DNA from: Heptranchias perlo
Taxonomy: Eukaryota
Length of the DNA: 64,000 nt
Reading direction: 5' to 3'
Assembly: GCF_035084215.1 (NCBI RefSeq)
Contig: NC_090363.1
Location: forward strand, 5,022,001 to 5,086,000
The notes under the pieces were generated by a model. That model saw nothing but the letters and a program-made list of their open reading frames with translations. It was not told the DNA's origin and did not search any database. The position numbers were made by a program, and so were the translations under genes. Below, one piece after another: positions 3,620-61,779 of the stretch (its first letter is position 1; every line of letters starts with the position of its first letter).

Positions 3620-4081
<462 letters not shown>

Positions 4082-18818: not shown

Positions 18819-19199
18819 ATGCCTGAAGCGGCGTCAAAAGGTATGGCTCCTAAAAAGGGGCCAAAGAAAGCGGCCACCAAGAAGCGGGCCAAGGGTGAAA
18901 AGAAGCGCCGAAAGACAAGGAAGCAGAGTTATAGCATCTACATCTATAAAGTGCTGAAGCAGGTCCACCCGGACACGGGCATCTCCTCCTCGGCCATGAG
19001 TGTCATCAACTCCTTCGTCAACGACATCTTCGAGCGCATCGCCTGCGAGGCTTCCCGCCTCATCCGCTACAGCAAACGGCAGACCATCTCCTCCAGGGAG
19101 ATCCAGACCACCGTCCGCCTCCTGCTGCCCGGGGAACTGGCCAAACACGCCGTCTCGGAAGGGACAAAGGCCGTCACCAAATACACCAGCTGCAAATAA
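18819..19199 (+). CDS. H2B: Histone H2B, divergent cysteine-containing variant (126 aa)
   Basis: [21 protein letters not shown]...[26 protein letters not shown]. Octamer promoter upstream and stem-loop downstream. Confidence 0.97.
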
Positions 19200-19957: not shown

Positions 19958-20530
<573 letters not shown>

Positions 20531-22417: not shown

Positions 22418-22864
<447 letters not shown>

Positions 22865-25498: not shown

Positions 25499-25879
25499 CT
25501 AAAGGGAATTGGTGTATTTAGTAACAGCTTTCGTGCCTTCAGAAACGGCATGTTTGGCCAGTTCCCCCGGCAGCATGAGGCGGACGGCACTCTGGATCTC
25601 CCGGGCTGAGATAGTCCGGCGATTATTGTAATGAATTAAATGGGAAGCCTCTGAGGCGATGCGCTCGAAGATGTCCACAACGAAGGAGTTCATGACACTC
25701 ATGGCCTTGGAAGAAATCCTGGTGGCGGGATGGACCTGGGTTAACACTCTGTAGACATAAGTGGAATAACTCAGCTTCCGACTTCTCCTCCGCTTCTTAG
25801 GAGTTTTCTTGTTGATTTTGGTAAGTGACTGCTTCGATAACTTTCTAGACGCAGCCCCTTTACTCGCCGCCTCAGGCAT
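25499..25879 (-). CDS. H2B: Histone H2B, highly divergent variant (126 aa)
   Basis: ATG at 25879 gives [16 protein letters not shown]...[45 protein letters not shown]...[23 protein letters not shown]. Intact ORF with stem-loop. Confidence 0.95.
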
Positions 25880-26100: not shown

Positions 26101-26841
26101 GGTAACCACTCAAAGCAGAGGGCGAGGTGACCTTTGACACCAAGGACCGCACCCAATACAGTCAAGATCTTGTGCTTTTCATCATTATAAGCAATGCTGA
26201 TGAAGGATCTTTTCAAACATTCACAGAAACCCCACCAATCTCTCCAGGAAAGAGATAGACCCAGATGGCGGATCAGGACAGGTTAACCGTTAACCTTGTC
26301 ATTTCTCTTTTCAGATGATAGGTTAAGTTGTTTTGTGAACTTCTAGCATCATCTGCTTTAATTTTAGCCGCCTGTGATAGAAGATTTAAGAAGTATCCAC
26401 TAAGTTTATTTTTTAAAAAAAAACATAACTTCTTTCACACTCTTAACTAAATTTGGTTTCAGAAAAAACTACAGGACTCAAAAATACTGCCAATTTTCTA
26501 CTGACTCGTATATTTAACCTCACGGTCTTTCTATCGCCCCTGTAGCCGATACGCTGAGTTTAATGAGGCGCCAGATTGTCCCCTAGAAGAATCAGCACAA
26601 GATCTGCAGCAGAGTAAGGAGCATCATTTTTCCATTTATTTTAGTGAATGCTTTAGGTAAACCTTCAATATTATTACAAACATGTTCCTAAGTGAATGCT
26701 GAATACATTTCGTCACGTAAAAGTGATACGGCAGGTTCATAACTAGACCCAGCCGACAAATTGTGACCCAGTTCAGGTGAAAATCGAGGAGGAAGGGGAG
26801 CATCAATGTCTTTAGCTCCTTTTTTGGTGGAATTTGTGGGT

Positions 26842-26857
26842 GGCTCTGAAAAGAGCC
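26842..26857 (-). terminator. Histone 3' stem-loop of H1-like gene A
   Basis: Minus strand reads CAAAA-GGCTCTTTTCAGAGCC-ACCCA. Confidence 0.95.
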
Positions 26858-26892
26858 TTTTGTGTTCAAATGGTTTGCCGCTCCTGTCCCGT

Positions 26893-27510
26893 CTACCTCC
26901 TCTTCGGGGCCTGTCGTTTACGCCCCACGGCCCGAGGTGCTGCGGGCCGCTTGGGTGCTTTTTTCGCCTTGGCAGTTCTCCCCTTCTGGGGGCTCTTGGC
27001 CGCCGACTTCTTGGCAGCTTTTGGTCTCTTGATGCTTTTATGAGGTTTGGCCTCCGTCGCCGCCGTTGTTGTTCTCTTGGGGGCCGGTTTCCTGCCCCGT
27101 CGTTTCTTCTTGGGTTCCCCTTCAGCCTCCTGAGGTTTACTGATCTGGAGGGAGCCCGGACCGCCGTTGGACCCACCGCCGCCCTGCACCAAGGAGCCTT
27201 TATTGATTAGAGTTTTAACGGACTGGACGGGCCGAGCGCCGCCGCTCTTCTCCATCTCGTAGCCCGAGGCCGAGATGGTCTTCTTCATGGTGGCCAAGGT
27301 GGCGGGAGCCTGGCGCTCCTTCGTGGCGGCCACCGCCTCCAGGATCTGCTCGGCCACCGCGGAGGGGGTTTTCTGCGGCCGGTAAGCGCTCTTCTTCTTG
27401 GTGGCTCCCGGGACCGCTGCCGGGCCGGTAGGAGCTGCGGGAGCCGCAGGTGCGAGAGCGGCGGCAACAGCGGGCAGATCCGTCTTGGCAGGAACAGTAA
27501 TGTCAGCCAT
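26893..27510 (-). CDS. H1: Linker histone H1-like A (205 aa) with degenerate globular domain
   Basis: ATG 27510 gives MADITVPAK...VAEQILEAVAATKER...KKTISASGYEMEK...VKTLINKGSLVQ plus a K/R/A/P tail. TATA 27563-27570, H1 box AAACACA 27643-27649, stem-loop. Confidence 0.88.
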   Translation of the reverse strand: MADITVPAKTDLPAVAAALAPAAPAAPTGPAAVPGATKKKSAYRPQKTPSAVAEQILEAVAATKERQAPATLATMKKTISASGYEMEKSGGARPVQSVKTLINKGSLVQGGGGSNGGPGSLQISKPQEAEGEPKKKRRGRKPAPKRTTTAATEAKPHKSIKRPKAAKKSAAKSPQKGRTAKAKKAPKRPAAPRAVGRKRQAPKRR

Positions 27511-28429
27511 CGGTAACACGACGTCGCCACAAAGATTATGGAGTAAGAGCGGCAGCGGCGGCTTTATAAAGGCGCAAGGCGGACGAGGTAGAGTCAACCT
27601 GCCGCCCAGCCGCGCCCTGTGCACCCCCTGCCCTCTGCACTTTGTGTTTCTCTCTCTTACAAAACGGGCGAATTTTCTTCGAAGCCAGATACCCTGAGAT
27701 TATACACGTGCATCATTCTGACGGGAACAGCACCTGCTTTGATATCAAACCGATTGGCGTCAAATGAAGCTAAATGGAAGTTTGCTATCTTCCACAGCAG
27801 CTGATCTGAGCTCGTGAAACCAGCAAGGATTATAAACTTTATTTATTCGTTTGTAACATTCCCGGATTATATCTAACACCGTGCTTGCAATTACCACTCC
27901 GATCCCTGCGGAATTGATGCAGTTAACATATCCGAGAGAGTGCGTTTTCTTATTCGAATTATGAACTTTTAAATGTCTTGCTAACTCCTGGCACAATAAC
28001 ACAATTTGGGCTCGTCGTTAACAGATTGAAAGTAAACTCGCCATTATACCATTAAAATCAAATGTGTCGGACGAATGATATCCAGTGCTCCTTGTTCACT
28101 CCTCCTCAAAACTCTTTACAGTTTTTCTAACCGAAAATAATATTTTTAAAAATGGGATTCTCATGTCCCAAGATTTTCAACTGAATTACGTTGAATACAT
28201 CAAATCTTGAATATTTCTTGAAAGGAATAGTTAGGAATCTTAAACCACTCTGTTTTGAGCTTTGGATAAATTGTGATTCACTTTCGAATATTAATCATCC
28301 ATCTCAGAACATTTAAGTTAAACATATTTGTTTTGAAAATTTGTATTTTTCCTACCATCACAATTATTCATAGTGAAATCTGAATTTATAAGGACATGCT
28401 CAGAAGTTGCTTGTGTTTATAAAACGTAG

Positions 28430-28810
28430 GTGTCAGCTTGGGTCAGTAGTGGCACTTTGGCATCTGAGTCAGAAGGTCAAGTGCCACTCCAGATATTTAA
28501 GCACATAATCCAGGCTGAGACCTCAGTACAGTACTGAGGGAGTGCTGCACTGTCGGAGGCGCTGTCTTTCAGATGAAACTTTAAAACGAAGCTCAGCCCA
28601 CCCTCTCGGGTGCAGGTAAATAATCCCGCAGAACTGTTTGACAAAGAGTAGCAGAGTCCTCCCCGTGGCCTGGCCATCAATTATCCCTCAACCAATACCA
28701 CTAAAACAGGTTATCTGGTCATTCGGTACATTGCTGTTTGTAGGACTTTGCTGGGGGCAAATTGGCTGCCAGGTTTCCCTCCTTACAACAGTAATGACTA
28801 CATTTAAAAA
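28430..28810 (+). mobile_element. tRNA-derived SINE (same family as 4287-4761)
   Basis: TGTCAGCTTGGGTCAGTAG...TCTGAGTCAGAAGG...CTGAGGGAGTGCTGCACTGTCGGAGG. Confidence 0.75.
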
Positions 28811-29389
28811 TAATAATAATAGGCTAATAGGCATTTTCCTGTATTTGATGTGCTCAGGCGAACCAATAGTCGCAGGCACAGGAACAGGAAAATTGCCCTG
28901 ATGTTTTTGTGCTGGGGCATGTGTGCTGAAGAGAGCTCATGTGATAGTCCAACTTGCTGCTCATCCCTAGTGGCAGATGCTTCCCCTTGTCAACACCCTG
29001 TACAAAGACTTAACATGGAGTATGCAGCAAATGGCTGTGCACACAGTAACAAGGCCAAGTGGTTCGAGATGGTCCACCATCACCTTCACATGGCAATTAG
29101 AGATGAACAATAACTGCAGACTTGCCAGTGTCGTCCACATCCCGAGAACAAATTTAAAAATTACAACCCGTGCTCATCTCACAATGTCAAAACAACAAAG
29201 ATACTCCTCCTCAGCTAGCCTTCAACATGAGATTGATGCTTGATAAACAATTGCTCACTTCTTATGTGGCGATATGGTATAACAGAGTGCTCTGATTAGC
29301 CCTGTATCACTGCAAGATTCAGATTCATTTACGAACTGGATAAAAATATAAACCCACAACTAGCAGCACCTAGCTACAGAGCTGGCTCA

Positions 29390-29715
29390 ATTTTATAATC
29401 CTCATCCTTGTTTTCAAATCCCTCCATTCCCTCTCCCCCTCTCTATTTCTGTAACTTCCTCTAGCCCTACGACCCTCCGAGATCTCCGCGTTCCTCCAAT
29501 TCTGGCCTCTTGCGTATCCCCGGTTTCCATCGCTCCACCATTGGAGGCCCCTAAGCTCCATAATTCCCTCCCTAAACCCCTCTACCTCTCCTCCTTTAAG
29601 ACACTGTGTCTTTCACGTGGCTCAGTTTTAAACTTTTCTTGATAATGCTCCTGTGAAGCGCCTTGGGACGTTTTACTACGTTAAAGATGCTATATAAATG
29701 CAAGTTGTTGTTGTC
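29390..29715 (+). mobile_element. L2 LINE 3' end
   Basis: CTCATCCTTGTTTTCAAATCCCTCCAT...CTCCAATTCTGGCCTCTTG...GCTATATAAATGCAAGTTGTTG. Similar copies occur at ~39015, 44140, 44710 (minus), 45850, 47940 and 48700. Confidence 0.7.
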
Positions 29716-29949
29716 TGTCAAAGTATCTGCAGAGAATCCTGCTCCTCTTGCTAACCAGATATGAGCTTTCAAGTCAAACGAAGCAATTAATTAAAATTCA
29801 ATGGAAACATAAATCGTGCGGTTTCTATAACGGTTGGCTGATCAGCAACACCAGTTATACGCCCGGACCATGAGTTCAAAATCTATGCCATCATCTAGTG
29901 AAGTCATACTTTGACCTTGTTGATCAGGATGAATTGGTAGATCATCATT

Positions 29950-30320
29950 TAAGTGTAAGTTCAAGCATCACTCCAGAGATTTGATATGATCCAGGCTGAC
30001 ACTTCAGTGCAGTACTGAGGGAGTGCTGCACCGTCAGAGGTACTGTGTTTGGGATGGGACGTTAAACCGAGGCCTCATCTGCCCTCCCAGGTGGACATAA
30101 AAGATCCCCTGGCACTATTTGCAGAAGAGCCAGTGTCCTGGCCAATATTTATCCCTCAACCAACACCTAAAAACAGATTAGCTGGTCATTATCACATTGC
30201 TGCTTGAGGGACCTTGCTGTGTGCAAATTGGCTGCCGTGTATCCTACATTAAGCGACTTCACTTTGAAAAGTACTTTGGGCCGTCCTGCAGTTGAGAAAT
30301 TTTAAGTCTTTCTTTCTTTC
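29950..30320 (+). mobile_element. tRNA-derived SINE abutting the H2A pseudogene
   Basis: CCAGGCTGACACTTCAGTGCAGTACTGAGGGAGTGCTGCAC core, ending in a TCTT tail at 30320. Confidence 0.75.
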
Positions 30321-30322
30321 AT

Positions 30323-30652
<330 letters not shown>

Positions 30653-31316
30653 ATCCTCTCTCCTCCTTTAAAGAGCTACCTCCTAATTTTCATTCCCAAT
30701 TGAGGTCATTGAATGGGCTGTTATAACAACCCACCTTGACCTCATATTATGAGTAGAGCCCAAGTGTTAGTGGTCTGAAGATGGTGAACGGCTTCTGGGG
30801 CGGTCGAAGCTCCTATCCCAGACTCTGAAGAGGAAAACCCGGGATCAATGGGGTCGATGTCCCGATTGCGCCGCTGGAGAGCGAGGCTCCACGATGTTGC
30901 TTGAATCGAGCTCCCATTTATACGAAGCGACTCAAAACCAAACGGGGGGTAGAAATTAATCTTGGGCAGTTGTGCAAAATGGGCGGAATCACCTGTTATT
31001 CAATTCTATTGAGGAGGGAGGGATAATTTTAACCTAACCCCGCCTGGTGGGAACAGACGGTTCGGGTAGGACTCTCGTTTTCCATCGCATCCGATATTAC
31101 TCCTTTGACTTCTTGCGGTGAAGGTTCGCTTTTACCCCCGGGATCAGCCGTCTGTTTTGCATATTGCTCGATTTTCATCTGCATTGAAATCAGTGCGAAT
31201 GAAAATCAGGCAGAGTGTAAAACAAGCCGCCGATCTGCATCCCCCCCTCCCGGTGTTTAAAGTGTTCAGCCAAACCCCCTAATGGAGCACAAAATCGGAC
31301 GGGTGTAAATTGGGCG

Positions 31317-31916
31317 TTGAGCTGAAGCTGGGCGGGTTAGGTTAAAATCGGGACTGAAATTGGTTTCACTCCCCCCGTAGCTAGAGCGGTCTTGCTAGTA
31401 CCCTCGGTAGCCTTCTGTTTACCAGGAACTTTTACTTCAATTGATTTGTGGGCAGTTTGCTTGATTCCTGTTATCTTCTGACAACTGCCACCAACCCACA
31501 TCTGTCCAGTTGTGGTTTTATATGACATAACCGTTTGTTTCAAGGTTGGGCGCTAACGCAGTATTGAATGCAATTGGAGTGCTTTTCAATTCCCCTTCTG
31601 AAGTACCGAATTTGCCGTCCCTCCTTTATAGTGTCCGTTTTATTGAAACTGCAGTGCGATCATTTTTCCTCTGAACTTTCCTTTCCTGATCCTCGTTGAT
31701 GGTTCTCTAATTCCTCATGGAAATCAAGGCACATCCCACGGTTTCCTACTCAAGCATGTCATGCTTTCGCAATACTGGACCATTGGAGAATGGCCTGGAT
31801 ATTCAGGGCTCGCTGAAAACAGACACCAGTGAACGTTACATCAAGAACGTTAACGGGGGGGAAGTGAAACCAATTTCAGTCCCGATTTTAACCTAACCCG
31901 CCCAGCTTCAGCTCAA
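31317..31916. repeat. ~60-bp inverted repeat (31317-31378 / 31853-31916)
   Basis: TTGAGCTGAAGCTGGGCGGGTTAGGTTAAAATCGGGACTGAAATTGGTTTCACT and its exact reverse complement. Confidence 0.9.
31361..31474 (-). pseudogene. Decayed H3 5' fragment (N-terminal tail only)
   Basis: ITGIKQTAHKSIEVKVPGKQKATEGTSKTALATGGVKP aligns without gaps to [37 protein letters not shown]. Upstream TATAAAACCACA resembles the H3 promoter TATAAAAATCACA. Confidence 0.75.
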
Positions 31917-34488
31917 GGACCGTTGACTAGGACCATTTTTTGTTACGATTTCTCACAAACGCGAGTCCAGAATAGCCTAAGACCGCCGATCATTTCCTTT
32001 CCAGAAGAGTTGTTACAGTAAACAGCTTCGGTAAATAACTCAAATTGTATCAAGTAGCTCGGGGCTGCAAGGAAAGCTCTTACTGCTGACTAAACATAGA
32101 AGCCAGAAGGAGGCCATTTGGCCCATTGTGCATCTGCTGGCTCTCTGAAAGAACTATCCAATTAGTCCAACGCCCCTACTCTTTCCCCATAGCACCGCAA
32201 TGTTTTTCCTCTTTAAGTATATTTCCAATTCCCTTTTGGAAGTTACTATCTGCTTTCAGGCAGTGCATTCCAGATCATAACAACTGGAATCTCTATGATC
32301 TTCTGCTCGCGGGCTGCTGAATAATGAATTTGCTCTCCAGACTCTTCAGCAAGCCAGACACAAAGCAGGTTGGAAAATTCAATCTACAATATTATTACTG
32401 AGCGGCCCGACTGCATCATATGATGAGATTTGACCTCTAAGGCTGAACAATTTGACATGGTGGTCGACAGGACAGCAGGCTTGTGCACTGTACACAGATA
32501 GACTATTCCTAGAGGAATATTAAAAGCTGCAGCGGCGAGCGCTGAGTATCCGGAAAAGTGCTTGTGAATGTGAGATTCCAACAGGCGCTTCTTCGAACTT
32601 GATGTCTTCCCTTATCGTTGACACAGTCATCCCTGCAACAACAACTTTGGGGAAAGCGATGTATTAGCACAGGTTCAACAACTTCTAAAAATAAATTTGT
32701 AACCATGCCCGGAAGAAGGTCGAGGTTTCCCGTGTCCGCAATTGCGGGTCCGCAATTTTCCTCTAGTCGTCGCAAATGGTACAAAAATGTCGAGCCAGCG
32801 AGCGCAGAAACGAAAAATCCAGGTTAAACTTTAGGGAACAAAATCTTTAGAGTGATTGGGTAACTTCTGTAGAATTACTTTCAGTACTAGATCAGAATGA
32901 TTAAATTGTATTTTTTTAAAAAGGAATGTATTTTAAAATCAAAATCGGTGGATGACAAACTTTAAACATAGATTGCGTCCCATTTGAACATTACGTTTAC
33001 TATTGAATTCTCCGTGGACTGTGATGCCCTGTCTCTGGTTCAGTGATAAATTGGTTGAAGAAATGTAAAGAGATTTCTCAGATCAATAATGTATATGTAG
33101 TGAAATAATTATGGAATAAATCGACCCAGTTCATTGGCGAAATAACTTATGGATTGGACGGTGCTTATCATGAGACGGAACACCCACAACTGCGATTGAG
33201 TGATTACAACCATCAATTGACCACTATTCATTGAAAAGTTAAAAAGAGCACAATTATTTTCATTCCGATGCTCATATCTAGTATATTATTTTCTCCGGGA
33301 TCCATTTATTCCTGATTTGGTGAATTGGCTGCGACCTCAAGCCTTGGAATGTATTGTAGCGCATCTTTAATATTTAAAAAATACGAATAGCAACTGATGT
33401 ACAAAATATTTATTTTACATCGGCACCATAATCATTTAACTTGAAAGCATTCATTCTTAGAGAGAATCTCCCTAATAAATTCAAATTTTATTAGTTAAAT
33501 TAGAAATCTTCTTTAGACCCTCAATCCCAACCTATCCTGAGAAAGATCAAATATCTGTTATGTAAAGCTCGCTAATAAGCATTGAGTAATTGGTGGTACA
33601 ATGACATGCACATGAGTTGCATTATAAAGTTTTTTTGTAAACTGGGCTGAGTTTCAAATCAGATTGGTTGGTTGTCCATTGGAATTACACCCTGATCAGG
33701 TCATAGTATGGGGCGTTGTGGGCTCGAACGTCTCCTCTCAAACTCTCATTGCTCACTTGTCCGATACACTAGCAATAGATATAAGCACATTTGGTACAGG
33801 TGATGTAGCCTATAACTTCCCACGGACATCTGAATGAGTGGTTTGTGTAAACAATAGCTGACATTTGTGTCTATAACGGAAATAACTCACGTCAATTCTG
33901 AAAAAAAATTAAATTAAAAAAACGAATGTCATTGAATAGTATTGTAAACGAATTAAGTTAAAGATTTTTGGGAGTACTCGGTATTTTTCCAGCAAATCAG
34001 GAAAAAAGTTCCAATACAAGTACATTTCAAAATACTACATCCCATTCTTGGAATCAAAAACCCTATTGCAGGTATTTATTAACGCAAGCGATCCCATTGG
34101 CTTAATCGAACTTGATGGTGTGTAGTCCCCGTTTCTGAATGACTTGTGTTACTGTAGCCACATTTATGGAATCATTTAAGAGCAACGTAAACTGTAAAAT
34201 CACGGATTCTTTTTAAAACTTTTAACTTAGCAACTCTGCTTTGAAGGAGATTTTTAATTTTCAACTAAACCTCAAAGTTTATTAGTTATTTCTAAGGAGG
34301 AAAGGATAAAACCCGAAAATGCGCCGCCGATTTTTGCACCACGATGCACATCAGGGCGTGTTTTAAAGATCCTTGGCGCGCAACGCCACGGCTATTGGAA
34401 ATTTTGCAGCGGGTGCGTTGGAATGGCCCGGGTTTAGGAGGTCGTGTCGGGCGGGTTTCGCAGGAATAAGGGGATTAGTAAAAGGGAG

Positions 34489-34573
34489 AAACACAAAAGG
34501 AGAAAGGGAGGCTGAGGGGGAGAGGAGGCGGGCGGCGGGTTGGTTCCAGTCCGTCCGCCTTTGATCTATAAAA
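34489..34573 (+). promoter_or_regulatory. H1 promoter: H1 box, GC box, GTCCG element, TATA
   Basis: AAACACA 34489, GGGCGG ~34530, GTCCG 34553, TATAAAA 34567. Confidence 0.8.
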
Positions 34574-34687
34574 GCGGCTCCTCCGCGGTCGCTGCCCTTT
34601 AGTCTCAGCCGCGTTTGGTGCGAGACTGGGACAGGGAGAGAGAGAGAGAAAGAACTGCCCCGGGGGCCCGGCAACCCCGAGCTGACC

Positions 34688-35464
34688 ATGGCGGATAGCG
34701 ACCCAAAGGCAGACGATGCCGGAGATTCGGGTGTCGACAAGGCGATGGCCAAGAAGAAGAGGAAGCAGCAGCGGGCCCTTCAGAGCCGCAAGAAGACGGG
34801 CCCCACCGTAGCCGAGCGGATCCTGCAGGTGGCGGCGGCCGCCACGGAGCGGCGCGGCATCTCGCTGGCCGCCCTCAAGAAGGCTCTGTCCGGCAGGGGC
34901 TACGACGTGTCCCGCAACAACACCCGCGTCAACCGGACCGTCAGGCAGCTGGTGAAGAAGGGCTCGCTGGTACAGACCGCGGGCATCGGGGCGTCGGGCT
35001 CCTTCAAGTTCAACAAGTCCAAGACCCACCCGGACCCCGCGATGGTGGCGGCGGCAGCGGCGGCGTCGATCAAAGAAGAGGCCGCCAAGAAGAAATCTTC
35101 AGCTAAGAAACCCACCCCGGCGTCCTCCAAGAAATCGTCCCAGACCAAGACCTCAGCTGCCAAGAAGAGCCACACTGCCAAGCGCAAGGTGGCGAAGCCC
35201 AGGAACGCGGCGCAAACCCGCCGCAAGCCGAAATTCGCCGCAGGGAGAGCCGCGCCCAGGACCGTCCGCGTCCATCTCAAGCCCAAATCCGCCAAGGGCA
35301 GGGCGGTGTGGGATTATCAGAAATACAAGCCCGCAAGAGGCAAGAAGGCGGCCAACACCTACCGCAGGCGATCGCCAGCCACCAAACCAAAGCGGCCGGT
35401 GGGGCGCCCCCGGAAAGTCCCGATTGTCCGGAAGTATAGGGGAAACTATTGTCGGCAAAAATAA
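34688..35464 (+). CDS. H1: Linker histone H1-like B (258 aa), long Arg-rich tail
   Basis: Globular domain GPTVAERILQVAAAATERRGISLAALKKALSGRGYDVSRNNTRVNRTVRQLVKKGSLVQTAGIGASGSFKFNK. Stem-loop downstream. Confidence 0.95.
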   Translation: MADSDPKADDAGDSGVDKAMAKKKRKQQRALQSRKKTGPTVAERILQVAAAATERRGISLAALKKALSGRGYDVSRNNTRVNRTVRQLVKKGSLVQTAGIGASGSFKFNKSKTHPDPAMVAAAAAASIKEEAAKKKSSAKKPTPASSKKSSQTKTSAAKKSHTAKRKVAKPRNAAQTRRKPKFAAGRAAPRTVRVHLKPKSAKGRAVWDYQKYKPARGKKAANTYRRRSPATKPKRPVGRPRKVPIVRKYRGNYCRQK

Positions 35465-35491
35465 AACTCTCAAAATTTATCTGAACACAAC

Positions 35492-35507
35492 GGCTCTTTT
35501 AAGAGCC
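35492..35507 (+). terminator. Histone 3' stem-loop of H1-like B
   Basis: ACAAC-GGCTCTTTTAAGAGCC-ACGGA. Confidence 0.95.
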
Positions 35508-36231
35508 ACGGATTTTAGCAAATTTGAGCTAAACTAGTTACCACTGTGCCAGTTTTTTTTTACATAGCTTGCTGCAGTTGAAAAGAGATAGATGTGTAAT
35601 TTTTCCACAATATAAAGGGAGGGGATACGAAATTCACTCATTGCAGCAAATTTCCCTTTCGGAAGGTTCAGTGAGTCTTCGATGGTTGGGAGCAAAGGAA
35701 AGTTATCCAAGTCCCAAACAGATCCGGAGAGCAAGAAAGACCAGTGACAATTAGCTGCCAACTGTCAAGGGCACATCCATCGAGCCTTCTGCACACCAGT
35801 GTGCAAAAGGCCACCAAGGTCGAGAAAAAAGGCAGGAAAGAAAAGCAAGAGATAATTGATTAGCCGGTGCCAGGCTTTGTTCTTAAAAGCTTCTTTATTG
35901 TAAAGGGAAGAGTGTAACTCGGGAGAGGCAGGGAGTTCTGAGAACGAATGTGTTGTATTAGGAAACAGGCTTGATCAACTCCCAAATTAGATATCTGAAA
36001 AGACAATTGTCACTCCAGTGTAGGGCACGGTTTGAAACAAAAACACTAATTGCCCTTTCAGTCATTTGAGGAGATGAGATGACCCCGGATCCTTTGAGCT
36101 GGGGGAGACCTTTGGGCTGCTTTGGCTCTGTAACGTCCGGCCCACTCGGTTAAATAGCTCCGGCTGACGGAAACCCTTCATTTCCCCTACAGTATCCGTG
36201 AAAGATTCGAGGGACAAGTCCCAACCCAGCC

Positions 36232-36894
36232 ATGACCGACACTCTGTCTGCCAAAAGCCCCAGGAAGAGGACCAAGGCTTCCCACTCCGCCAGAAGAACC
36301 GGCACCACCGTGTCCGAGCAGATCATGGAGGCGGTGGCGACCACCAAGGAGCGCCGCGGGCTCTCGCTGTCGGCTCTCAAGAAGATCCTCTCGGGCGGCG
36401 GCTACGACGTGGCCCGAAACAACTGGCGGGTCAACCAGGCGGTCAGGAGCCTGGTGAGTAAAGGCTCACTGATGCAGACCGCGGGCACGGGCGCCTCGGG
36501 TTCCTTCAAAGTCAGCAAGACCCAGAAGGACAAGGCGATCAGGACGGAGGAGAAGCCGAAGACGGAGTCCACCGGCACCAGGAGAAGGAGGAAAGGTTTG
36601 GCCAAGAGACCCGCCGCCGCCAAGAAGCCCAAAAAGCCCAAGAAGAGAGGGGCTCCCAAGAAGACCAAGAAACACGGCGCTTCCAGGAAGGTGGCGAGGG
36701 GGACTCGCAAGGAGAAAATCACCAAGGGGAGGAAGCCGGTGAGGAGTGGCCGAAAAGGGAAACACACAAAGCCGAGAAAGTTGGCCAAACACCCGGAGAA
36801 GGTGGAGGAGGCGGACAAGCCTCCCGCTCATAAGGAAACCTCCGTGTCTCACAAAGAAAGCCAAGATTGCTCAGAGCAACGGGGCAGCACCTGA
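36232..36894 (+). CDS. H1: Linker histone H1-like C (220 aa)
   Basis: [70 protein letters not shown]. Stem-loop downstream. Confidence 0.95.
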
Positions 36895-36937
36895 GCGGAG
36901 GCGAAGCACCCTGAATGCTTTATTTTAAAAAAACAAC

Positions 36938-36953
36938 GGCTCTTTTCAGAGCC
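36938..36953 (+). terminator. Histone 3' stem-loop of H1-like C
   Basis: ACAAC-GGCTCTTTTCAGAGCC-ACAAG, then the AAAGAG HDE. Confidence 0.95.
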
Positions 36954-37479
36954 ACAAGACAATCAGCAAAGAGCCGAACTAGTCGTAAAGGCCTTTCTTA
37001 AAATAGAGTTTGGAATTGAAAAAATAAAGGGTGGGAAAATACTTGCGCCTATACAACACATCAAGCAGCATTCGAAAGGCAGAACGCTGCGTAAATATTT
37101 ATGGTGAGGTCCTTCCTCCGCGCCTATCAGGTAGTCTCCAAAGCCGCTGTACATTGCCAGCATTTTTTAAAAAGATATTGTTTTATAGGAACTAAGTTAA
37201 AATGTAAGATGAGCCGGGAAGCTGCACGTTTGGGATCTGGAAATTGGCACATTTCACAAGTAGGCAAGTTGCAACAGGACGAAGCACGGGATTGGCAGGA
37301 GATTATGACCCCCGCGGCGGTGGTTTCCATCGTGTCCGCTTTGTGCCTTTAAATAGGAGCGACGGCGGCTGTTGCATCTTTTTTTTGACGGGGGGCGGGT
37401 CTGGAAATAATAGTTAACATCCATCCTTAAATTGGGTGGCACAGGTGGTGCAATTCAACCGTTCGAACCCACGCCCAAG

Positions 37480-37965
37480 ATGCCCACACTTGGCGTTAAC
37501 GCCGACCAGCAGAAAAAGAAGAAGAAGCGCCAGCACCGACCTTACCAGAGGAAGAAAGAGCTGCGGATCTCCCAGCTCATCCTCGAGGCACTGTCGGCCC
37601 GCAAGCAGCGCGGCGGCCTCTCGCTCGCCTCCCTCAGGAAGGCGCTGCTGGCCAACGGCTACGACGTGGAGAAGAACAAGGCCCGCGTCCAGCTGGCCGT
37701 CAAGAGCTTGGTGAGCAACGGCTCGCTGGTGCAGACCAAAGGTAAAGGCGCCACGGACTCCTTCATGCTCAGCAGGAGGGAGCAACAACAGCAGAAGGAA
37801 TCCGGGGCCGGGATCAAGGCCAAGAAGGAAACCAATAAGATCAAAGGGAGGACCAGAAACGCCGGCAAGAAACCCAGGGTGAAGCGAACTGCGAAGAAGG
37901 CAACTTCCAGAAAAACTAAATTGAAAAAATCTAAGAAAGTTAAAAGGAAAAGAAAGACAGTTTAA
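37480..37965 (+). CDS. H1: Linker histone H1-like D (161 aa, short)
   Basis: First ATG after TTTAAATA (37348) is at 37480. [68 protein letters not shown]. Confidence 0.93.
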
Positions 37966-37980
37966 AGCTCTGAACAAAAA

Positions 37981-37996
37981 GGCTCTTTTCAGAGCC
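37981..37996 (+). terminator. Histone 3' stem-loop of H1-like D
   Basis: AAAAA-GGCTCTTTTCAGAGCC-ACAGT. Confidence 0.95.
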
Positions 37997-39853
37997 ACAG
38001 TATCTCCGCAAAGGACTGAAATAACCATTCTAACCCAATTCATTTCTTATCTAGAAGAAAAATGAACAGGAAAGCTTAGATTTAAAACTATTAATGGTGA
38101 ATATGTGGAACAGATTACCAGTCGAGGCGGATAGTGTTCAAGGGGAAATCAGATGCACATTGAACAGAATGATTGAGGCCGCATAGGATTTGAGCAGCTT
38201 TAGGACAGCGGCAAATAAGTGTGATAGTCCTTTTTTAATCCTGCACATTGACAATGTAGGAATTGCTGAATTGTCTTACAGTTGAAATTAGAATCTGACA
38301 CTTTTTTCCCGGAGAGAATATGTTAAAAAGATCTGCCATTTGTTCCCTTCAGTATAGCTTGACACCAAATCCTTTGCGGTGGTTTTTCTCTTCAATCAAC
38401 CGGCTTGAGGTTTTGATTGCCCTTGTCAATATCTGAGGACACCCTCCAATAGATTGATGTCTACAACCTTGATGCAGGTGAGCAATCAGCTGGATCTTGG
38501 TTGCGTATTTTAGGTTACCTCAGGAACTACGATTACACCTTAGGAATGTACCCTTTCATGGCAACTGCATGCACTGTTGGGAGAGCTTTAATCGGCATCA
38601 ATGCTTCAAAACAAGTTATCATATTTAATCTCGGGCCAAAGTTATTTTCATCACTTTACCTGTGCCGTTGTTGGCATTTCATTCTCTTTTCCCATAAAGT
38701 CAGGTTTCCCAGGGGTTCTTTCCTCTATGGCTGGGATACTGGAGGTTTTCTGGACCCATTAGTAAGACGGAAAGTCATATTGGAGACACTACGAGCATTC
38801 TGGGAAAACTAAAGGGTTTAATCCTTGGTTTCTGTGAATTCCATGTTACAGAAAGGGCTCATGCCATAACTCATAACATCATGGTGTAAAAATTCAACTG
38901 ACTCTGTTTTGAACCCCTTCAATCGGGTTTCTGACCTTCCCACATCATCAAAACGGCCATAACCTAATTCATGAAATATTTTTTTCTGTGTCTGTTTCCC
39001 ATGGTGTACTGTCTCATTAAAAATTCTCATCCTTGTTTTTAAATCCCTCCTTGGCCTCACCTCTTCCCCAATTTTACAACTGCCCTCCAGACTCACTGTT
39101 CCTCCAACTCCGGCCTCTTGTGGATGCCCCCCTCCCCTCGTCCCACCTTTGATGATCGTGTCTTAAGCTGGATAGGCCCAGCACTCTGGAATCCCCTTCC
39201 TAACTTCTCCAGCACCTGCTCCTCATATAAGACTCTTTAAAAACCACCTTTTTGACCAAGATGTTGGTCATCTCTCCCAACATCTTCTTTAGCTTGCATT
39301 TTTCCTTTTCTTCCGTTATTTTCGATTATAAAGGATCCCTGGATTCACACCTCCAGAATAAACAGGGAGATTTAATGAGGCAGGGAGCCGGTTTTCCTAC
39401 ATTACAACAGTGACTATATACTCCAATACTCCATTGGCTGTAAAGCGCCTTGGGATGTCCTGAGGTCGTGAAAGGTGCTCTGTATATGTTTTATCTTTCT
39501 TTCATTAAGCATATGAAATTGGCACATGACATTTGCTTAAATAATGAATAGTAAAAATGCATTAAAAATTCTTTCTTTCGGTTTATATTGTAATCGTTTT
39601 CTGATTCTTTGTGTTCTGCAAGGAGTTCGGCCCCAGTGGCTTAGTAATTTATGAAACTTCGAGTTGGGTCAAATTCCTTCGATTTCTAAGGCAGGAATTG
39701 TGCCAAATAGAACTATATTCGGCTAATTTCGGAATACCTAATTCTGCAGAAAATACAATAAGACCTATTATGCTACATCACAACAGTGACTACACTTCAA
39801 AAGTGCTTCATTGGTTGTAAAGTGCTTTGGGATGTTCTGAGGCCGTGAAAATG

Positions 39854-40345
39854 TTTTTTTTTTGTGATTTTAGGCCCCCCTTTTATAAGGCGGGGGGGGG
39901 AGGGGGGGTTAGGGTGTGTTTGTGTACAACCAAAGAAAACCAAAACCAGTGTCAAATTAAGATTTTATTATTCTTGTCCCGGATGCACTCCAGCCCCTGC
40001 GGTGCCCACCGGTAAATGCAAGGTCTTTTTTTCTTTGATGTTTCTCCTCACCTCACCTCTCATTCAATGCCTTCTCCCGGATTCAGAGGTATGCAAACAC
40101 GCAAGCAAAGGCGGTTGTTCTGCTCTGCCTTCCCCTTTTTTTCCATGGGGGATTTTGTAGAAAGAGGTTTGTTCCGGGTGTTTTTTTGTCCTTTTTCTTT
40201 TAGGCCTCCCCCCCCCCTTTTATAAGAAGGGGGGTTTAGGGTGTGTTTATGTACGAAAATCCCAAAGAAAAACCAAAACAAGTTCAAATCATAATTTTAT
40301 TATTCTTGTCCAGGATGCAGTCCAGCCCCTGCGGTGCCCACCGGT
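39854..40345 (-). mobile_element. Two retrotransposon 3' ends (Tx1-like; 39854-40013 and ~40181-40345)
   Basis: Minus strand encodes YRWAPQGLECIRDKNNKILI* and YRWAPQGLDCILDKNNKIMI*. Each is followed by CACACCCTAA-CCCC..TTATAAAA-GGGG and an A-rich tail. Confidence 0.65.
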
Positions 40346-40506
40346 AAATGCAAGGTCTTCTTTCCATGGCAGAGTAACCCAGGGCTGGGGGCGTGGCCTA
40401 GCGGGAGCTTGACTCTACCTCGTCCGCCTTTCGCCCTTATATAAAATGTCGCCGCCGCGGCTCCGCCACATCTTTGCGCGACGTCCATGAGCTTGGACTT
40501 TGCTCA

Positions 40507-41103
40507 ATGGCCGATATCGTCCCTGCGAAAGCCGATGTCTCCGCACCCACTCCTCCCGATGCCGCCGCCACCCCGGCCGTGGCCCCGGGAGCCGCCAAGA
40601 AGAAGGCCGCTTACCGGCCGCAGAAAGGCGCCACCGCGGTGGCCGAGCAGATCCTGGAGGCGGTGGCCGCCACCAAGGAGCGCCAGGCTGCCAAACTGGG
40701 CGCCGTGAAGAAGATCATCTCGGCCTCCGGCTACGAGGTGGAGAAGAGCGGCGTTCGGCCCAACCAGTCGGCCAGTGCCCTGGCCAACAAGGGCTCCCCG
40801 GTGGAATCCGGCGCCGGCCCCGGTCCGTCCTCGGCCTCCGTTCTTCTGAACCAAGAGAAGGAGGAGGAGGAGGAGGAGGTCGAGGACTGGACCAAAGGAG
40901 GCGCCAAGAGGAAACGACGAGCCAAGAAACCGGCCCAGAAGAGAGCGGCGGCGGAAGCCAAACTTGCCCACAAACCCGCCAAGAAGCGAAAAGCCGCCAA
41001 AAAGTTGCCGGCGGTCAAGAGCCCCCGGAAGGGGAAAGCGGCCAAACGTCCCGCAGTATCCAAGGCCGTGGGACGTAAGCGACGGGCCCCGAAGAGGAGG
41101 TAG
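40507..41103 (+). CDS. H1: Linker histone H1-like E (198 aa), paralog of A, with degenerate globular domain and poly-Glu
   Basis: ATG 40507 gives MADIVPAKAD...AYRPQK...AVAEQILEAVAATKERQA...KKIISASGYEVEKSG. TATATAAAA 40438 and stem-loop. Confidence 0.88.
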   Translation: MADIVPAKADVSAPTPPDAAATPAVAPGAAKKKAAYRPQKGATAVAEQILEAVAATKERQAAKLGAVKKIISASGYEVEKSGVRPNQSASALANKGSPVESGAGPGPSSASVLLNQEKEEEEEEVEDWTKGGAKRKRRAKKPAQKRAAAEAKLAHKPAKKRKAAKKLPAVKSPRKGKAAKRPAVSKAVGRKRRAPKRR

Positions 41104-41138
41104 ACGGGACAGGAGCGGCAAACCATCTGAACACAAAA

Positions 41139-41154
41139 GGCTCTTTTCAGAGCC
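41139..41154 (+). terminator. Histone 3' stem-loop of H1-like E
   Basis: CAAAA-GGCTCTTTTCAGAGCC-ACTCA. AATAAA at 41169. Confidence 0.95.
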
Positions 41155-41499
41155 ACTCACAGATTTCCAATAAAAGAAGCTAAATGCATCGATTGACGCT
41201 CTTCCCCTCCCGAATCTCACTTGAACTGGTTCACAATTTGTTGGCTGGGTCTCGTTATTAATCATAAAATCGCACAGAATGCGGCGGTTAGACCCATCGT
41301 GTCTGTGTCGGCTCTTTAAGAGAGCTATCCCAGTCACTGAATACATTTAAGAAGAAGCTAGATAGATTCCTTGACACAAAAGGCATCAAGAGGTATGGGG
41401 AGAGAGTGGGAATGTGATATTGAGATGAAGGATCAGCCATGATCATATTGAATGGTGGAGCAGGCTCGAAGGGCCGAATGACCTACTCCTGCTCCTATT

Positions 41500-48263: not shown

Positions 48264-48626
48264 ATGGCCTCGCCTGCCCTCTACCTCTCTCCTCACCCAC
48301 ACAACTTTCAGAATGCAAAGGTTCTCGTCACCCTAGAGTATGGAAGGTTGAAGCTCAAGGTCGTCGAAATCAGGGGGCCCGCTGCCGGAGATACCCAGAG
48401 CCAGTTGACGCTGGCCAGATTGCCAGCGGTGGAAACCGACTCCAAACTTTGCATCTGCGGAGCGACCGCCGTGGCGCACTACCTGGCCTCGGACTGGATG
48501 AGGGGATCCGGCCCGAAGGACGAGGCGTTGGTCCAGCAGTGGCTGAGCTTTGCGGATAACGAGGTTGTTCAGCCGGCCTGCGCGTGGGCTTTCCCTGTTC
48601 TGGGCCTGCTGAAGCACAACAAACAG
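48264..48626 (+). CDS. VARS1: Valyl-tRNA synthetase coding exon 1 (GST-like N-terminal domain)
   Basis: MASPALYLSPHPHNFQNAKVLV...LVQQWLSFADNEVVQPACAWAFPVLGL. Acceptor TGTAG 48241, donor CAG|GTACGG, phase 0. Confidence 0.88.
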
Positions 48627-49608
48627 GTACGGCGACTGACAGACTTTTAACTGGGCTTCTGCGATGAGACAGTTCACGCAGCTTGTATAAACTCTGTAAA
48701 CTGGAGCTCAGGAGCTCGTCCAGAACCCTGCTGCCCGCAATCCCAACTCACTCCAAGTCCCGTTCACCCATCACCCCCCCCAACCCCGGTACTCGCCGAC
48801 CTACCTTGACTCTCAGTCCACCAACGCCTTGGTTTTCAAATTCTCATCCTCGTGTGCAAATCCCTCCCAGTCTCTCTAACCTCCTCCAGCCCTGCAAGCC
48901 CCCCTGAGATCTCTGCGTTCCCCCACCTCTGGCCTCTTGTCCATTCCCCACTTCCTACGCCCTACCATTGGCGGCCGTGCCTTCGGCTGCCTAGGCCTTA
49001 AGCTCTGGAATTCCCTCCCTAAACCCCTCTTCCTCTCTCTCCTTCCTTAAAATCTAACTATTTGACCAAGCGTTTGGTCGCCTGTCCTGATATTTGCTTC
49101 TTTGGCTCGCTGTCAATTTTCTTTCTCTGATTACATTCCCGTGAGGCGCCTTGGGACGTTTTACTACGTTAAAGGTGCTATATAAATGCAAGTTATCGTT
49201 GTATGCTATTATTGACTGAATCGATGTGAGGCGCAGCCCTGTTAGATGCTATAGGACGGGGTGAACAAACATTACTTGCAATATTACAGGAATGTAGGAG
49301 CATACAGGTCTGGAAAAGATGACACCATGCCATAGTTACATACAACGGGCAGAATTTTCCAAGACTTCGTGCCACTGGTGGGGCTTCACTCGGCAGGTGG
49401 CTTATCGGAAAAAAACGCCGGAGATACACCTGGGATTTTTCCTGATAAACCTCTGGCGGCCTGGGGCTTTGGAAACTCTGGCATGTTATCTGTAGTGTCA
49501 GCCTGGGTTATATGCTGAGGTCTCTGGATTGGGGCTTGAACCTATGACCTTCTGACTCAGAGGTGAGATTGCTACTCCCTCCTCACTCCCTCCTCTGTTC
49601 TGCCGCAG

Positions 49609-56471: not shown

Positions 56472-56596
56472 CACAATATCTCTGAACCCAACCCGAAGGG
56501 GACGTTCATGATCTGCATCCCTCCGCCGAATGTGACTGGGTCCCTGCATCTGGGCCACGCCTTAACCAACGCAATTCAGGACTCACTCACCCGCTG
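56472..56596 (+). CDS. VARS1: Valyl-tRNA synthetase coding exon 7 (HIGH-type motif HLGH)
   Basis: [42 protein letters not shown]. 125 nt. Confidence 0.96.
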
Positions 56597-57074
56597 GTAA
56601 TGCCCCTCCCCCGCCCCCACGCCATTAACGGACGCTGCTTGCCAGACGGAGCTGCTCGCCCGTTTTTTCCCCGTCTATAGTTAGCGACTGTGCCGGACGT
56701 CTGTAGCGCACGGACTGGGCATGTTCGGCTTGGGCGTTGGAAGAAGCGGCAGAATGTTCTGGAAACGCTCGGCGAGCTGATCAGCACCTGAAAGGGAAAC
56801 GACAGGTTGATGCTTCGAGTGGGAGACGCCGTCAGAATGCCAGGCCGACTCTTCTAATTATTTTAACTCTTAAAAAAACCTTTTCCTTATCAATATTAGT
56901 ACGCACGTGTATATAAGTATACACAAGTGGACCATCCCTTGGATTGATTGCAGTGAATTGTGGCATGCGATGGTTCATAAAGTCGGCCTGCAGCAATTAT
57001 CCCTCCAGCAGAGACACAGATTCGACCCAATCCCAGCATCACAATTACTTTATCCTCCGACTCAACAGGGTGTC

Positions 57075-61215: not shown

Positions 61216-61380
61216 GCACCGTATGCGCGGAGAGACGACGCTGTGGAACCCCGGGTGTGATCACGCCGGCATCGCCACACAAGTCGTGGTGGAGAAGAAG
61301 CTTTGGCGCGAGACGGGGAGAACCCGGCACGACCTGGGTCGGCAGAGCTTCATCGAGGAGGTGTGGAAGTGGAAGAACGA
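61216..61380 (+). CDS. VARS1: Valyl-tRNA synthetase coding exon 8 (gene continues beyond window)
   Basis: [32 protein letters not shown]...[19 protein letters not shown]. 165 nt, AG/GT bounded. Confidence 0.96.
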
Positions 61381-61779
61381 GTGAGTGCGGATCGAAGCCC
61401 TCGTCGGCACTTCCTCCGGGGTGGGGGGGAGGGGGCGGCTGTGTAGGAAACGTGGGCTCCCGATCCCGACCAGGGGAATTGTATCGTCCGAAGGTGAATG
61501 GCGGAAGCTGCTTGGCTCGGTCGAGCGTTAATGGCAGTCGTTTCGTCGATTGGGATCGGAGTTTGAACCCGTCCTACTTTTTAAGTGGGATGAAAGTCTT
61601 CTCACTGTGCCCGATTGGGGGGTCCGACATGCAGTGAGTTTGCAGCAGCCTCGGGCCAGGTACTTGTTCCTAACTCTGGGAACAACAGTACATCCTTCTC
61701 CACTTGACCGTGTCTGCCAAGCAGTGGGGTGTTGACATAGCTGGGAATCAGTGCTGCTCATTCTCCTTTTTATCCTCTT

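Follow-up and report, generated by a model that had tools for sequence, protein, structure and literature searches.

The sequence analysed here, called the window, is a 64,000-nucleotide (nt) stretch of the shark Heptranchias perlo (contig NC_090363.1, here C42, positions 5,022,001–5,086,000), and it carries five genes for variants of the linker histone H1, termed A to E (Table 1). Five H1-like open reading frames (ORFs) had been proposed in a first-pass annotation, and all five were recovered at the places and lengths it gave; each is intact and intronless. The stem-loop ascribed to every gene was also found, 15–43 nt after the stop codon. The five stem-loops score 31–38 bits with the Rfam model RF00032, those of A and E lying above its cut-off of 34 bits and those of B, C and D slightly below it (E about 1e-6). 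With intronless frames, a 3′ stem-loop, a purine-rich downstream element and core histones clustered alongside, A to E are genes of the replication-dependent type. As first noted, H1 is more numerous in the window than each core histone (five H1, one H4, one H3, one H2A plus a broken copy, and two H2B). In the Pfam H1/H5 family (PF00538, cut-off 22.4 bits) B, C and D score 56–63 bits, while A and E fall below the cut-off. A and E are 61% identical and form a related pair; the five genes therefore represent four lineages, and the initial description of five mutually divergent genes holds for B, C and D but not for the A/E pair.

Table 1. Histone genes, associated elements and synteny anchors in the window (positions count from the first nucleotide of the 64,000-nt window)
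Feature	Position	Strand	Details
H1 variant A (A/E lineage, degenerate globular domain)	26893..27510	-	205 aa ORF; PF00538 19.8 bits
H1 variant B, globular domain intact	34688..35464	+	258 aa ORF; PF00538 56 bits
H1 variant C, winged-helix domain predicted intact	36232..36894	+	220 aa ORF; PF00538 62.7 bits
H1 variant D, short tail	37480..37965	+	161 aa ORF; PF00538 58 bits
H1 variant E (A/E lineage, degenerate globular domain then acidic run)	40507..41103	+	198 aa; PF00538 14.8 bits
Histone 3′ stem-loop of A	26818..26862	-	RF00032 38.2 bits
Stem-loop of B	35487..35531	+	RF00032 31.3 bits, E 2e-6
Stem-loop of C	36933..36976	+	RF00032 32.6 bits
Stem-loop of D	37976..38022	+	RF00032 32.7 bits
Stem-loop of E	41134..41179	+	RF00032 36.8 bits
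H1-box-like element upstream of A	27643..27649	-	GTCCGC element and TATA-like site closer to start
H1-box-like element upstream of B	34489..34495	+	
Divergent H2B variant with stem-loop, sharing about 70% identity with other window H2B	25499..25879	-	ORF, profile, stem-loop
Second divergent H2B with stem-loop	18819..19199	+	ORF, profile, stem-loop
H3 of cluster	20120..20530	+	ORF, stem-loop search
H2A of cluster, partly N	22418..22807	-	ORF, stem-loop search
H4 of cluster	3620..3931	-	ORF
VARS1 first exon (GST-like), synteny anchor	48264..48650	+	
VARS1 synthetase exons	56481-56600 and 61217-61387		

The array continues outside the window. A scan of C42 4,822,001–5,390,000, except 5,086,001–5,090,000, found 15 intact, divergent H1 ORFs spread across about 270 kb and no bulk-type H1. 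The ORFs lie in two sub-clusters on either side of VARS1, the valyl-tRNA synthetase gene, which is recognised by a GST-like first exon, synthetase exons and a best PDB match to ValRS. The first sub-cluster (5,011–5,063 kb) has the order H2B-variant, H1-F, H1-G, H4, H2B-variant, H3, H2A, H2B-variant, A, broken H2A, B, C, D, E, and the second (5,197–5,278 kb) contains F′, C′, D′, B′, two E-types, B″, D″, a broken H1, two variant H2Bs and several H2A, H3 and H4 genes. A stem-loop was matched in 14 of the 15 variant H1 ORFs, with none within 300 nt of D′. Six lineages can be told apart among the variants: A/E, B, C, D, F and G. Between the two sub-clusters, the similarity of copies is confined to blocks the size of a gene, about 1 kb long (C/C′ 93%, E/E′ 95%, F/F′ 98% identical), and therefore reflects gene duplication or conversion rather than a duplicated assembly segment. 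An assembly artefact as the source of the second sub-cluster is ruled out by these blocks together with the histone-sized genes found on both sides of vars1 in sawfish and catshark. The locus is an ancient one of replication-dependent type, in which several lineages of variant histones stand in a set order.

The rest of the genome contains at least 150 further H1 matches. In a PF00538 search 150 of 264 candidates were scored; all 150 exceeded the cut-off and none lay on C42. The control set comprised the 29 translated loci of 30 returned, namely 26 bulk-type H1 and three H1.0-type genes. Bulk H1 genes form tandem arrays of near-identical copies on C49, C1456, C1562, C1275, C1499 and other contigs; like the variants they are intronless, with a stem-loop and a common GTCCGC/TATA promoter layout, but they differ in forming their own clade and in having Lys-only tails. 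Two H1.0-type genes lie in tandem on C43 and a truncated copy on C18. These share the H1 fold with B, C and D, but have no stem-loop. In the globular domain A to E are 31–46% identical to bulk H1 and 19–33% to the H1.0 type. The domains of B, C and D are 62–65% identical to reedfish H1, 54–58% to macaque H1.3, 38–46% to bulk H1 of their own genome and 31–33% to H1.0. Bulk shark H1 has a globular-domain type of its own, only 56–60% identical to reedfish H1 and macaque H1.3, and the variant cluster is closer to bony-vertebrate H1.

Judged by sequence, each of the six lineages has orthologues in other sharks and mostly in rays, with relatives in chimaera. Conservation across sharks had been set in advance as a test of the family, and is found. 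Full-length orthologues of C occur in Cetorhinus, Pristiophorus and Carcharodon at 53–55% identity, with more members in Stegostoma, Heterodontus and Hemitrygon. A search with A gave 15 matches: two from this genome, 12 from nine other shark and ray species and one a teleost H1. The 14 from sharks and rays all lack a precomputed Pfam domain. Orthologues of D were named from six shark species and none from rays. For B, seven of the ten top matches named are shark or ray B-types, and three are unrelated multi-domain H1s. Callorhinchus has at least three related proteins, two of them on one 64.6-kb contig. Sharks and rays split roughly 270–300 million years ago, and chimaeras diverged roughly 400 million years ago.

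The main tree comprises 71 rows and 78 columns; the A/E rows and one C5 fragment were left out as long branches, and the trees hold no HILS1 sequence. Each lineage included forms one clade across species (B 97/98, C 92/83, D 100/99, F 98/91, G 100/93). B, C, F and G group with three Callorhinchus proteins (94/84), within which G pairs with Callorhinchus XP_007882588.1 (97/88). D stands apart from this group, weakly beside four teleost proteins annotated ‘protamine-like’ (93/56). Bulk shark H1 forms its own clade (100/100), H1.0 and H1t fall outside the variant clades, and the two H1t rows make a clade (98/97) separate from every shark variant. Grouping with ordinary H1, another refuting outcome proposed at the outset, is not seen in the tree for bulk H1 of this genome, and the original suggestion of an expanded, specialised linker-histone family is borne out by the shark and ray orthologues and by the position of the variants outside bulk H1 and H1.0. 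In a quick tree of 42 rows A and E form one clade (SH-aLRT 98) within the variant group (96), and the placement of D is unresolved. Divergent Arg-shifted H1s of Polyodon (paddlefish) and Osmerus (smelt) carry in helix 3 a signature also seen in the shark variants, and form a separate group (84/51).

The A/E lineage is H1-derived, since its homology to the H1 globular domain is clear (E 5e-8), and it is predicted to have undergone a conserved loss of the winged-helix fold with helix 1 retained. Among 15 A/E proteins the mean majority fraction is 0.88 for the N-terminal basic motif, 0.95 for helix 1, 0.65 for helix 3 and 0.54 for the wing; a 15-row set of C, F and G gives 0.72 for helix 1 and 0.81 for the wing. 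Helix 3 contains Pro in 13 of the 15 A/E rows, with loss of core hydrophobics, and is less decayed in A than in E. In E-types the globular domain is followed by an acidic run. An AlphaFold model of E from a 15-row alignment contains a helix at 42–57 only, with a predicted local confidence (pLDDT) under 60 and no residue at 90. The control model of C, also from 15 rows, has three helices and a beta-wing at a pLDDT of about 90, and matches the structures of H1.1, H1.2 and H1.4 with template-modelling (TM) scores of 0.92–0.96 of the target. Models were made for E and C, and the winged helix of B and D is predicted from their PF00538 scores. The nearest functional analogue of A/E would be HILS1 (H1.9), which has a divergent globular domain, low helicity and poor condensing ability (sections consulted of PMC6069787). 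A decayed E-type fragment lies at C4:133,674,131 with 69% DNA identity and no promoter or stem-loop seen; calling it a retrocopy is not supportable.

Each of A to E has a basic, low-complexity C-terminal tail with a net charge of 0.26–0.42 per residue, and acidic patches occur in the tails of C, D, E and F. Arg makes up 7–11% of A to E and R/(K+R) is 0.32–0.40, against 0.09–0.15 in bulk-type H1 of the same genome (26 of 26 translated). The Arg enrichment first described is therefore real relative to bulk H1, but Lys still exceeds Arg, so the proteins are Arg-shifted, not Arg-rich. Counts of S/TPxK sites are also as described (A 1, B 0, C 1, D 0, E 1), although the contrast with several sites in somatic H1 is modest, bulk H1 having 1–8 and mostly 2. 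Across 49 variant proteins K+R is 18–33%, R/(K+R) 0.32–0.73 and the number of S/TPxK/R sites 0–3. Net charge per residue of the whole protein is 0.09–0.25 in A/E, C, F and G and 0.13–0.30 in B and D; in the comparison sets it is 0.27–0.28 in bulk H1 (n=3), 0.22–0.30 in bony-vertebrate H1 (n=11), 0.24 in macaque H1t and 0.29–0.33 in teleost proteins annotated ‘protamine-like’ (n=4).

Composition of this kind could in principle reflect relaxed selection on redundant genes that are decaying, the Arg shift being a product of GC-biased substitution on a small chromosome. GC content at four-fold sites (GC4) is 0.70–0.89 in the variants against 0.66–0.76 in bulk H1, and the locus holds broken H1, H2A and H4 copies and an orphan stem-loop. 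Between diverged paralogous copies of B, C, D and E dN/dS is 0.5–0.9, which indicates rapid evolution but is a crude NG86 estimate from few sites, subject to GC bias and possible gene conversion. However, sharks, rays and in part chimaera have preserved the open frames, the stem-loops, the gene order and the identity of each lineage; conservation of helix 1 in A/E stands at 95%, and F and F′ differ by four synonymous and no non-synonymous changes. GC bias as the sole cause of the Arg shift is ruled out by A, which has a bulk-like GC4 of 0.70 yet an R/(K+R) of 0.33, and by H1.0a, which has a GC4 of 0.83 yet an R/(K+R) of 0.14. Decay is accordingly regarded as highly unlikely.

The resemblance is closest to H1t (H1.6), which the first-pass annotation had listed among Arg-shifted relatives and which, with HILS1, is the closer analogue by composition. 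Like the shark variants, H1t derives from replication-dependent H1 and has an Arg-shifted tail with about one S/TPxK site; the tail of C (K 25%, R 12%, one site) nearly matches that of H1t (K 27%, R 11%, one site). The H1t gene, too, has a stem-loop and sits in a cluster of core histones on the chromosome that carries the MHC. The two differ in that the tree shows no orthology, that six lineages and 15 genes stand against one H1t, and that the shark locus lies between LSM2/HSP70 and VARS1 (class III) and not in the extended class I region. H1t and HILS1 are described as poor condensers in the sections consulted of PMC7057672 and PMC6069787, and for H1t this is ascribed there to missing S/TPKK motifs. 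The reading preferred here, at a probability of roughly 0.45, is that this old cartilaginous-fish cluster supplies variant H1s that replace ordinary H1 in male germ cells and loosen chromatin before protamine-type proteins arrive. The variants would take over from ordinary H1 in spermatocytes or spermatids. B, C and D would bind nucleosome linkers through the winged helix with weakly condensing, H1t-like tails. A/E, which appear to keep helix 1 and the basic N-terminal motif without the fold formed by recognition helix and wing, would not dock as a winged helix; they may be largely disordered and bind DNA or a partner protein, in a HILS1-like or transition-protein-like manner.

A protein family of this composition might instead condense DNA in late spermatids and sperm, as protamine-like (PL) sperm nuclear basic proteins do. 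The variants share with these, teleost annotations included, an H1-derived winged helix (B, C and D) and a Lys-to-Arg shift, which other species show more strongly, with an R/(K+R) of up to 0.73. The weak placement of D beside the teleost annotations points the same way, although it is not resolved in the 42-row tree, as do top ESM Atlas matches for E, which include clusters auto-named ‘protamine-like protein’ (0.94–0.95; all PF00538 clusters). The shark variants differ from PL proteins in their lower K+R and charge and in having 0–3 S/TPxK/R sites against 4–6. Dogfish sperm contain short Cys/Arg-rich protamines, which also counts against a PL role. The parts consulted of PMC13148410 state that sharks use PL-type sperm proteins (citing Bloch 1976), that PL proteins carry a protamine-resembling Arg/Lys stretch of 30–50 aa and that they originate from the H1.0/H5 lineage. 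No such stretch was found in the best 40-residue windows of A to E, where K+R reaches 17–23 and Arg only 6–9. The protamine-like and H5 analogy first drawn is not supported, given this lack, the absence of H1.0/H5 affinity (31–33% for B, C and D) and a charge mostly below that of bulk H1. Because the charge is mostly below bulk H1 and no 40 residues hold more than nine Arg, the profile is that of H1t and HILS1 rather than of a condensing PL, a role which is judged improbable. Two S. torazame F-type and three Callorhinchus accessions are absent from a catshark sperm proteome (PMC11083954), an accession-only list in which a histone control is impossible, so that their absence carries no weight either way.

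Alternatively, sharks may have independently evolved a set of replication-dependent H1 subtypes for somatic or developmental use, comparable to H1.1–H1.5 of mammals; such genes would be expressed during S phase, whether in many tissues or in certain somatic lineages, and would tune chromatin locally. Intronless stem-loop genes clustered with near-canonical H3, H4 and H2A and sharing promoter elements with bulk H1 would suit such a role, as would domains of B, C and D nearer to bony-vertebrate replication-dependent H1 than to bulk H1 of their own genome. An H1-box motif is present in eight of eight bulk H1 promoters and, among the variants, is kept only by the A and B types; it is absent within 300 nt of C, D and E and from the F promoters. 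Its loss in four lineages speaks against ordinary somatic subtypes, as do the H1 genes already abundant elsewhere in the genome. Eleven bony-vertebrate somatic H1s, unlike the variants, have an R/(K+R) of 0.03–0.24 and 2–5 S/TPxK/R sites. A somatic role is considered unlikely.

A further candidate role is that of weakly condensing linker histones of the female germline or early embryo, loaded in oocytes or cleavage-stage embryos. Oocyte H1s have lower charge and acidic patches, and the variants share the lower charge and, in the tails of C, D, E and F, the patches. Germline H2B variants can be ovary-enriched (part of PMC8857922). Against this, the variants are intronless stem-loop genes of the replication-dependent lineage, and a separate, far more divergent and apparently intron-containing H1-like exon on C5 could be the oocyte type. 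The oocyte alternative is thought distinctly unlikely.

Several points weigh against a role in male germ cells. The tissue, spermatocyte or spermatid, and any staging would follow from analogy only, with H1t, HILS1 and germline H2B variants. No grouping with H1t appears in the tree, so the likeness is convergent at best, and the tree is only 78 columns wide. The tail charge of D and of some ray B types, 0.40–0.43, equals that of bulk H1. Stem-loops, the GTCCGC element and TATA-like sites as in bulk S-phase genes, with an H1 box in A and B, fit replication-coupled expression. The statement that sharks use PL-type proteins favours condensation, and the dN/dS values, which point to fast turnover, are a crude estimate. 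Low AlphaFold confidence is no proof of disorder, the models being those of E and C.

A bolder proposal, speculative and rather unlikely, concerns A/E itself. The lineage may be a linker histone that has lacked the winged-helix fold since before the shark–ray split and has been kept for helix 1 and its basic N-terminal motif. It would act as a disordered transition or decoy protein of spermatids, taking turns with four or five further stage-specific H1s and with variant H2Bs, all encoded at a single MHC-linked locus, and would represent a living intermediate on the proposed path from H1 to protamine by Arg shift and globular-domain loss. The degeneration of the A/E globular domain, the second sub-cluster and the MHC-linked synteny go beyond what was first described for the window.

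The setting of the locus points to class III within the major histocompatibility complex (MHC), on the strength of VARS1, a second class I synthetase at 7.8 Mb of C42, five HSP70 ORFs directly upstream of the cluster and the sawfish map. The consulted supplement of PMC10751288 gives for the sawfish MHC chromosome (chr34) the order HSP70 ×3, LSM2 (smx5), H2B-, H1-, H4-, H2B+, H3+, H2A-, H2B-, H1-, vars1+, SAPCD, a second histone group and ABHD16A; order and strands on C42 follow this pattern. The first H1- row there is 720 bp, the length of a G-type protein gene, and B to E are not listed in the supplement’s 26-kb interval before vars1; the word ‘histone’ occurs 0 times in the main text. In catshark, short unnamed genes lie on both sides of vars1. 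Some of these, at 615 and 447 bp, match the catshark E- and D-type proteins in length, and directly upstream of vars1, on the same strand, there is a model of 6.7 kb. The Scyliorhinus canicula protein ‘dapper homolog 3-like’ (XP_038672875.1) wrongly joins B-, C- and E-type ORFs, in window order, into one product, and is probably this 6.7-kb model. The gene lists of reedfish and lungfish contain no histone-like rows beside VARS1; the location therefore looks specific to cartilaginous fishes. Orthology with mammalian HIST1 is unsupported, the reedfish histone cluster lying about 280 Mb from VARS1 among zinc-finger genes. All 43 MHC class I matches lie on small scaffolds and none on C42, and a class II beta search found nothing. 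A candidate proteasome exon lies at the end of C42.

Other features of the locus were seen in passing. Three divergent H2B types with Arg-shifted N-terminal tails and stem-loops are 70–84% identical to the window H2B at 18819. Besides the two in Table 1 they lie at C42 5,011,096, 5,197,768 and 5,214,868, and sawfish H2B rows match their positions; they are possibly uncharacterised germline H2B variants. An orphan histone stem-loop at about C42 5,010,535 (-), 3′ of a variant H2B, has a downstream element like that of H1-C, and appears to be what is left of a deleted C gene because the same H2B type precedes C′ in the second sub-cluster. Broken H2A, H4 and H1 copies with their stem-loops kept lie at window 30324–30652 (+) and at C42 5,210,486 and 5,268,807. 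One VARS1 exon is matched twice, at C42 5,104,969 (-) and 5,108,112 (+), a local inverted duplication or an assembly feature. Between window positions 57000 and 64000 a VARS1 intron contains purine/pyrimidine simple repeat, several kb in all, that gives rise to spurious long ORFs.

No paper describing these genes was found in the literature searched, which did not extend to the bulk of subscription journals or, among them, to earlier studies on dogfish sperm proteins. The consulted text of an elephant-shark cDNA paper (PMC3466250) uses ‘histone’ 0 times, and the consulted part of PMC11607694 holds nothing specific on them. The genes are present in RefSeq under generic names such as ‘histone H1-like’, ‘uncharacterized’ and even ‘dapper homolog 3-like’.

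H1 subtype diversity has been described mainly for mammals, and the cartilaginous fishes present an independent, much older set of six H1 lineages at one conserved locus. The main weight of the finding lies in this deep conservation and in the fold-degenerate A/E lineage. A lineage apparently without the H1 fold but with one helix conserved points to a function of H1 helix 1 outside the winged helix. The shark testis is ordered zonally by stage (sections consulted of PMC13052469). Existing catshark testis data could therefore be used to test directly what germ cells need several H1s for and how H1 becomes a transition- or protamine-type protein.

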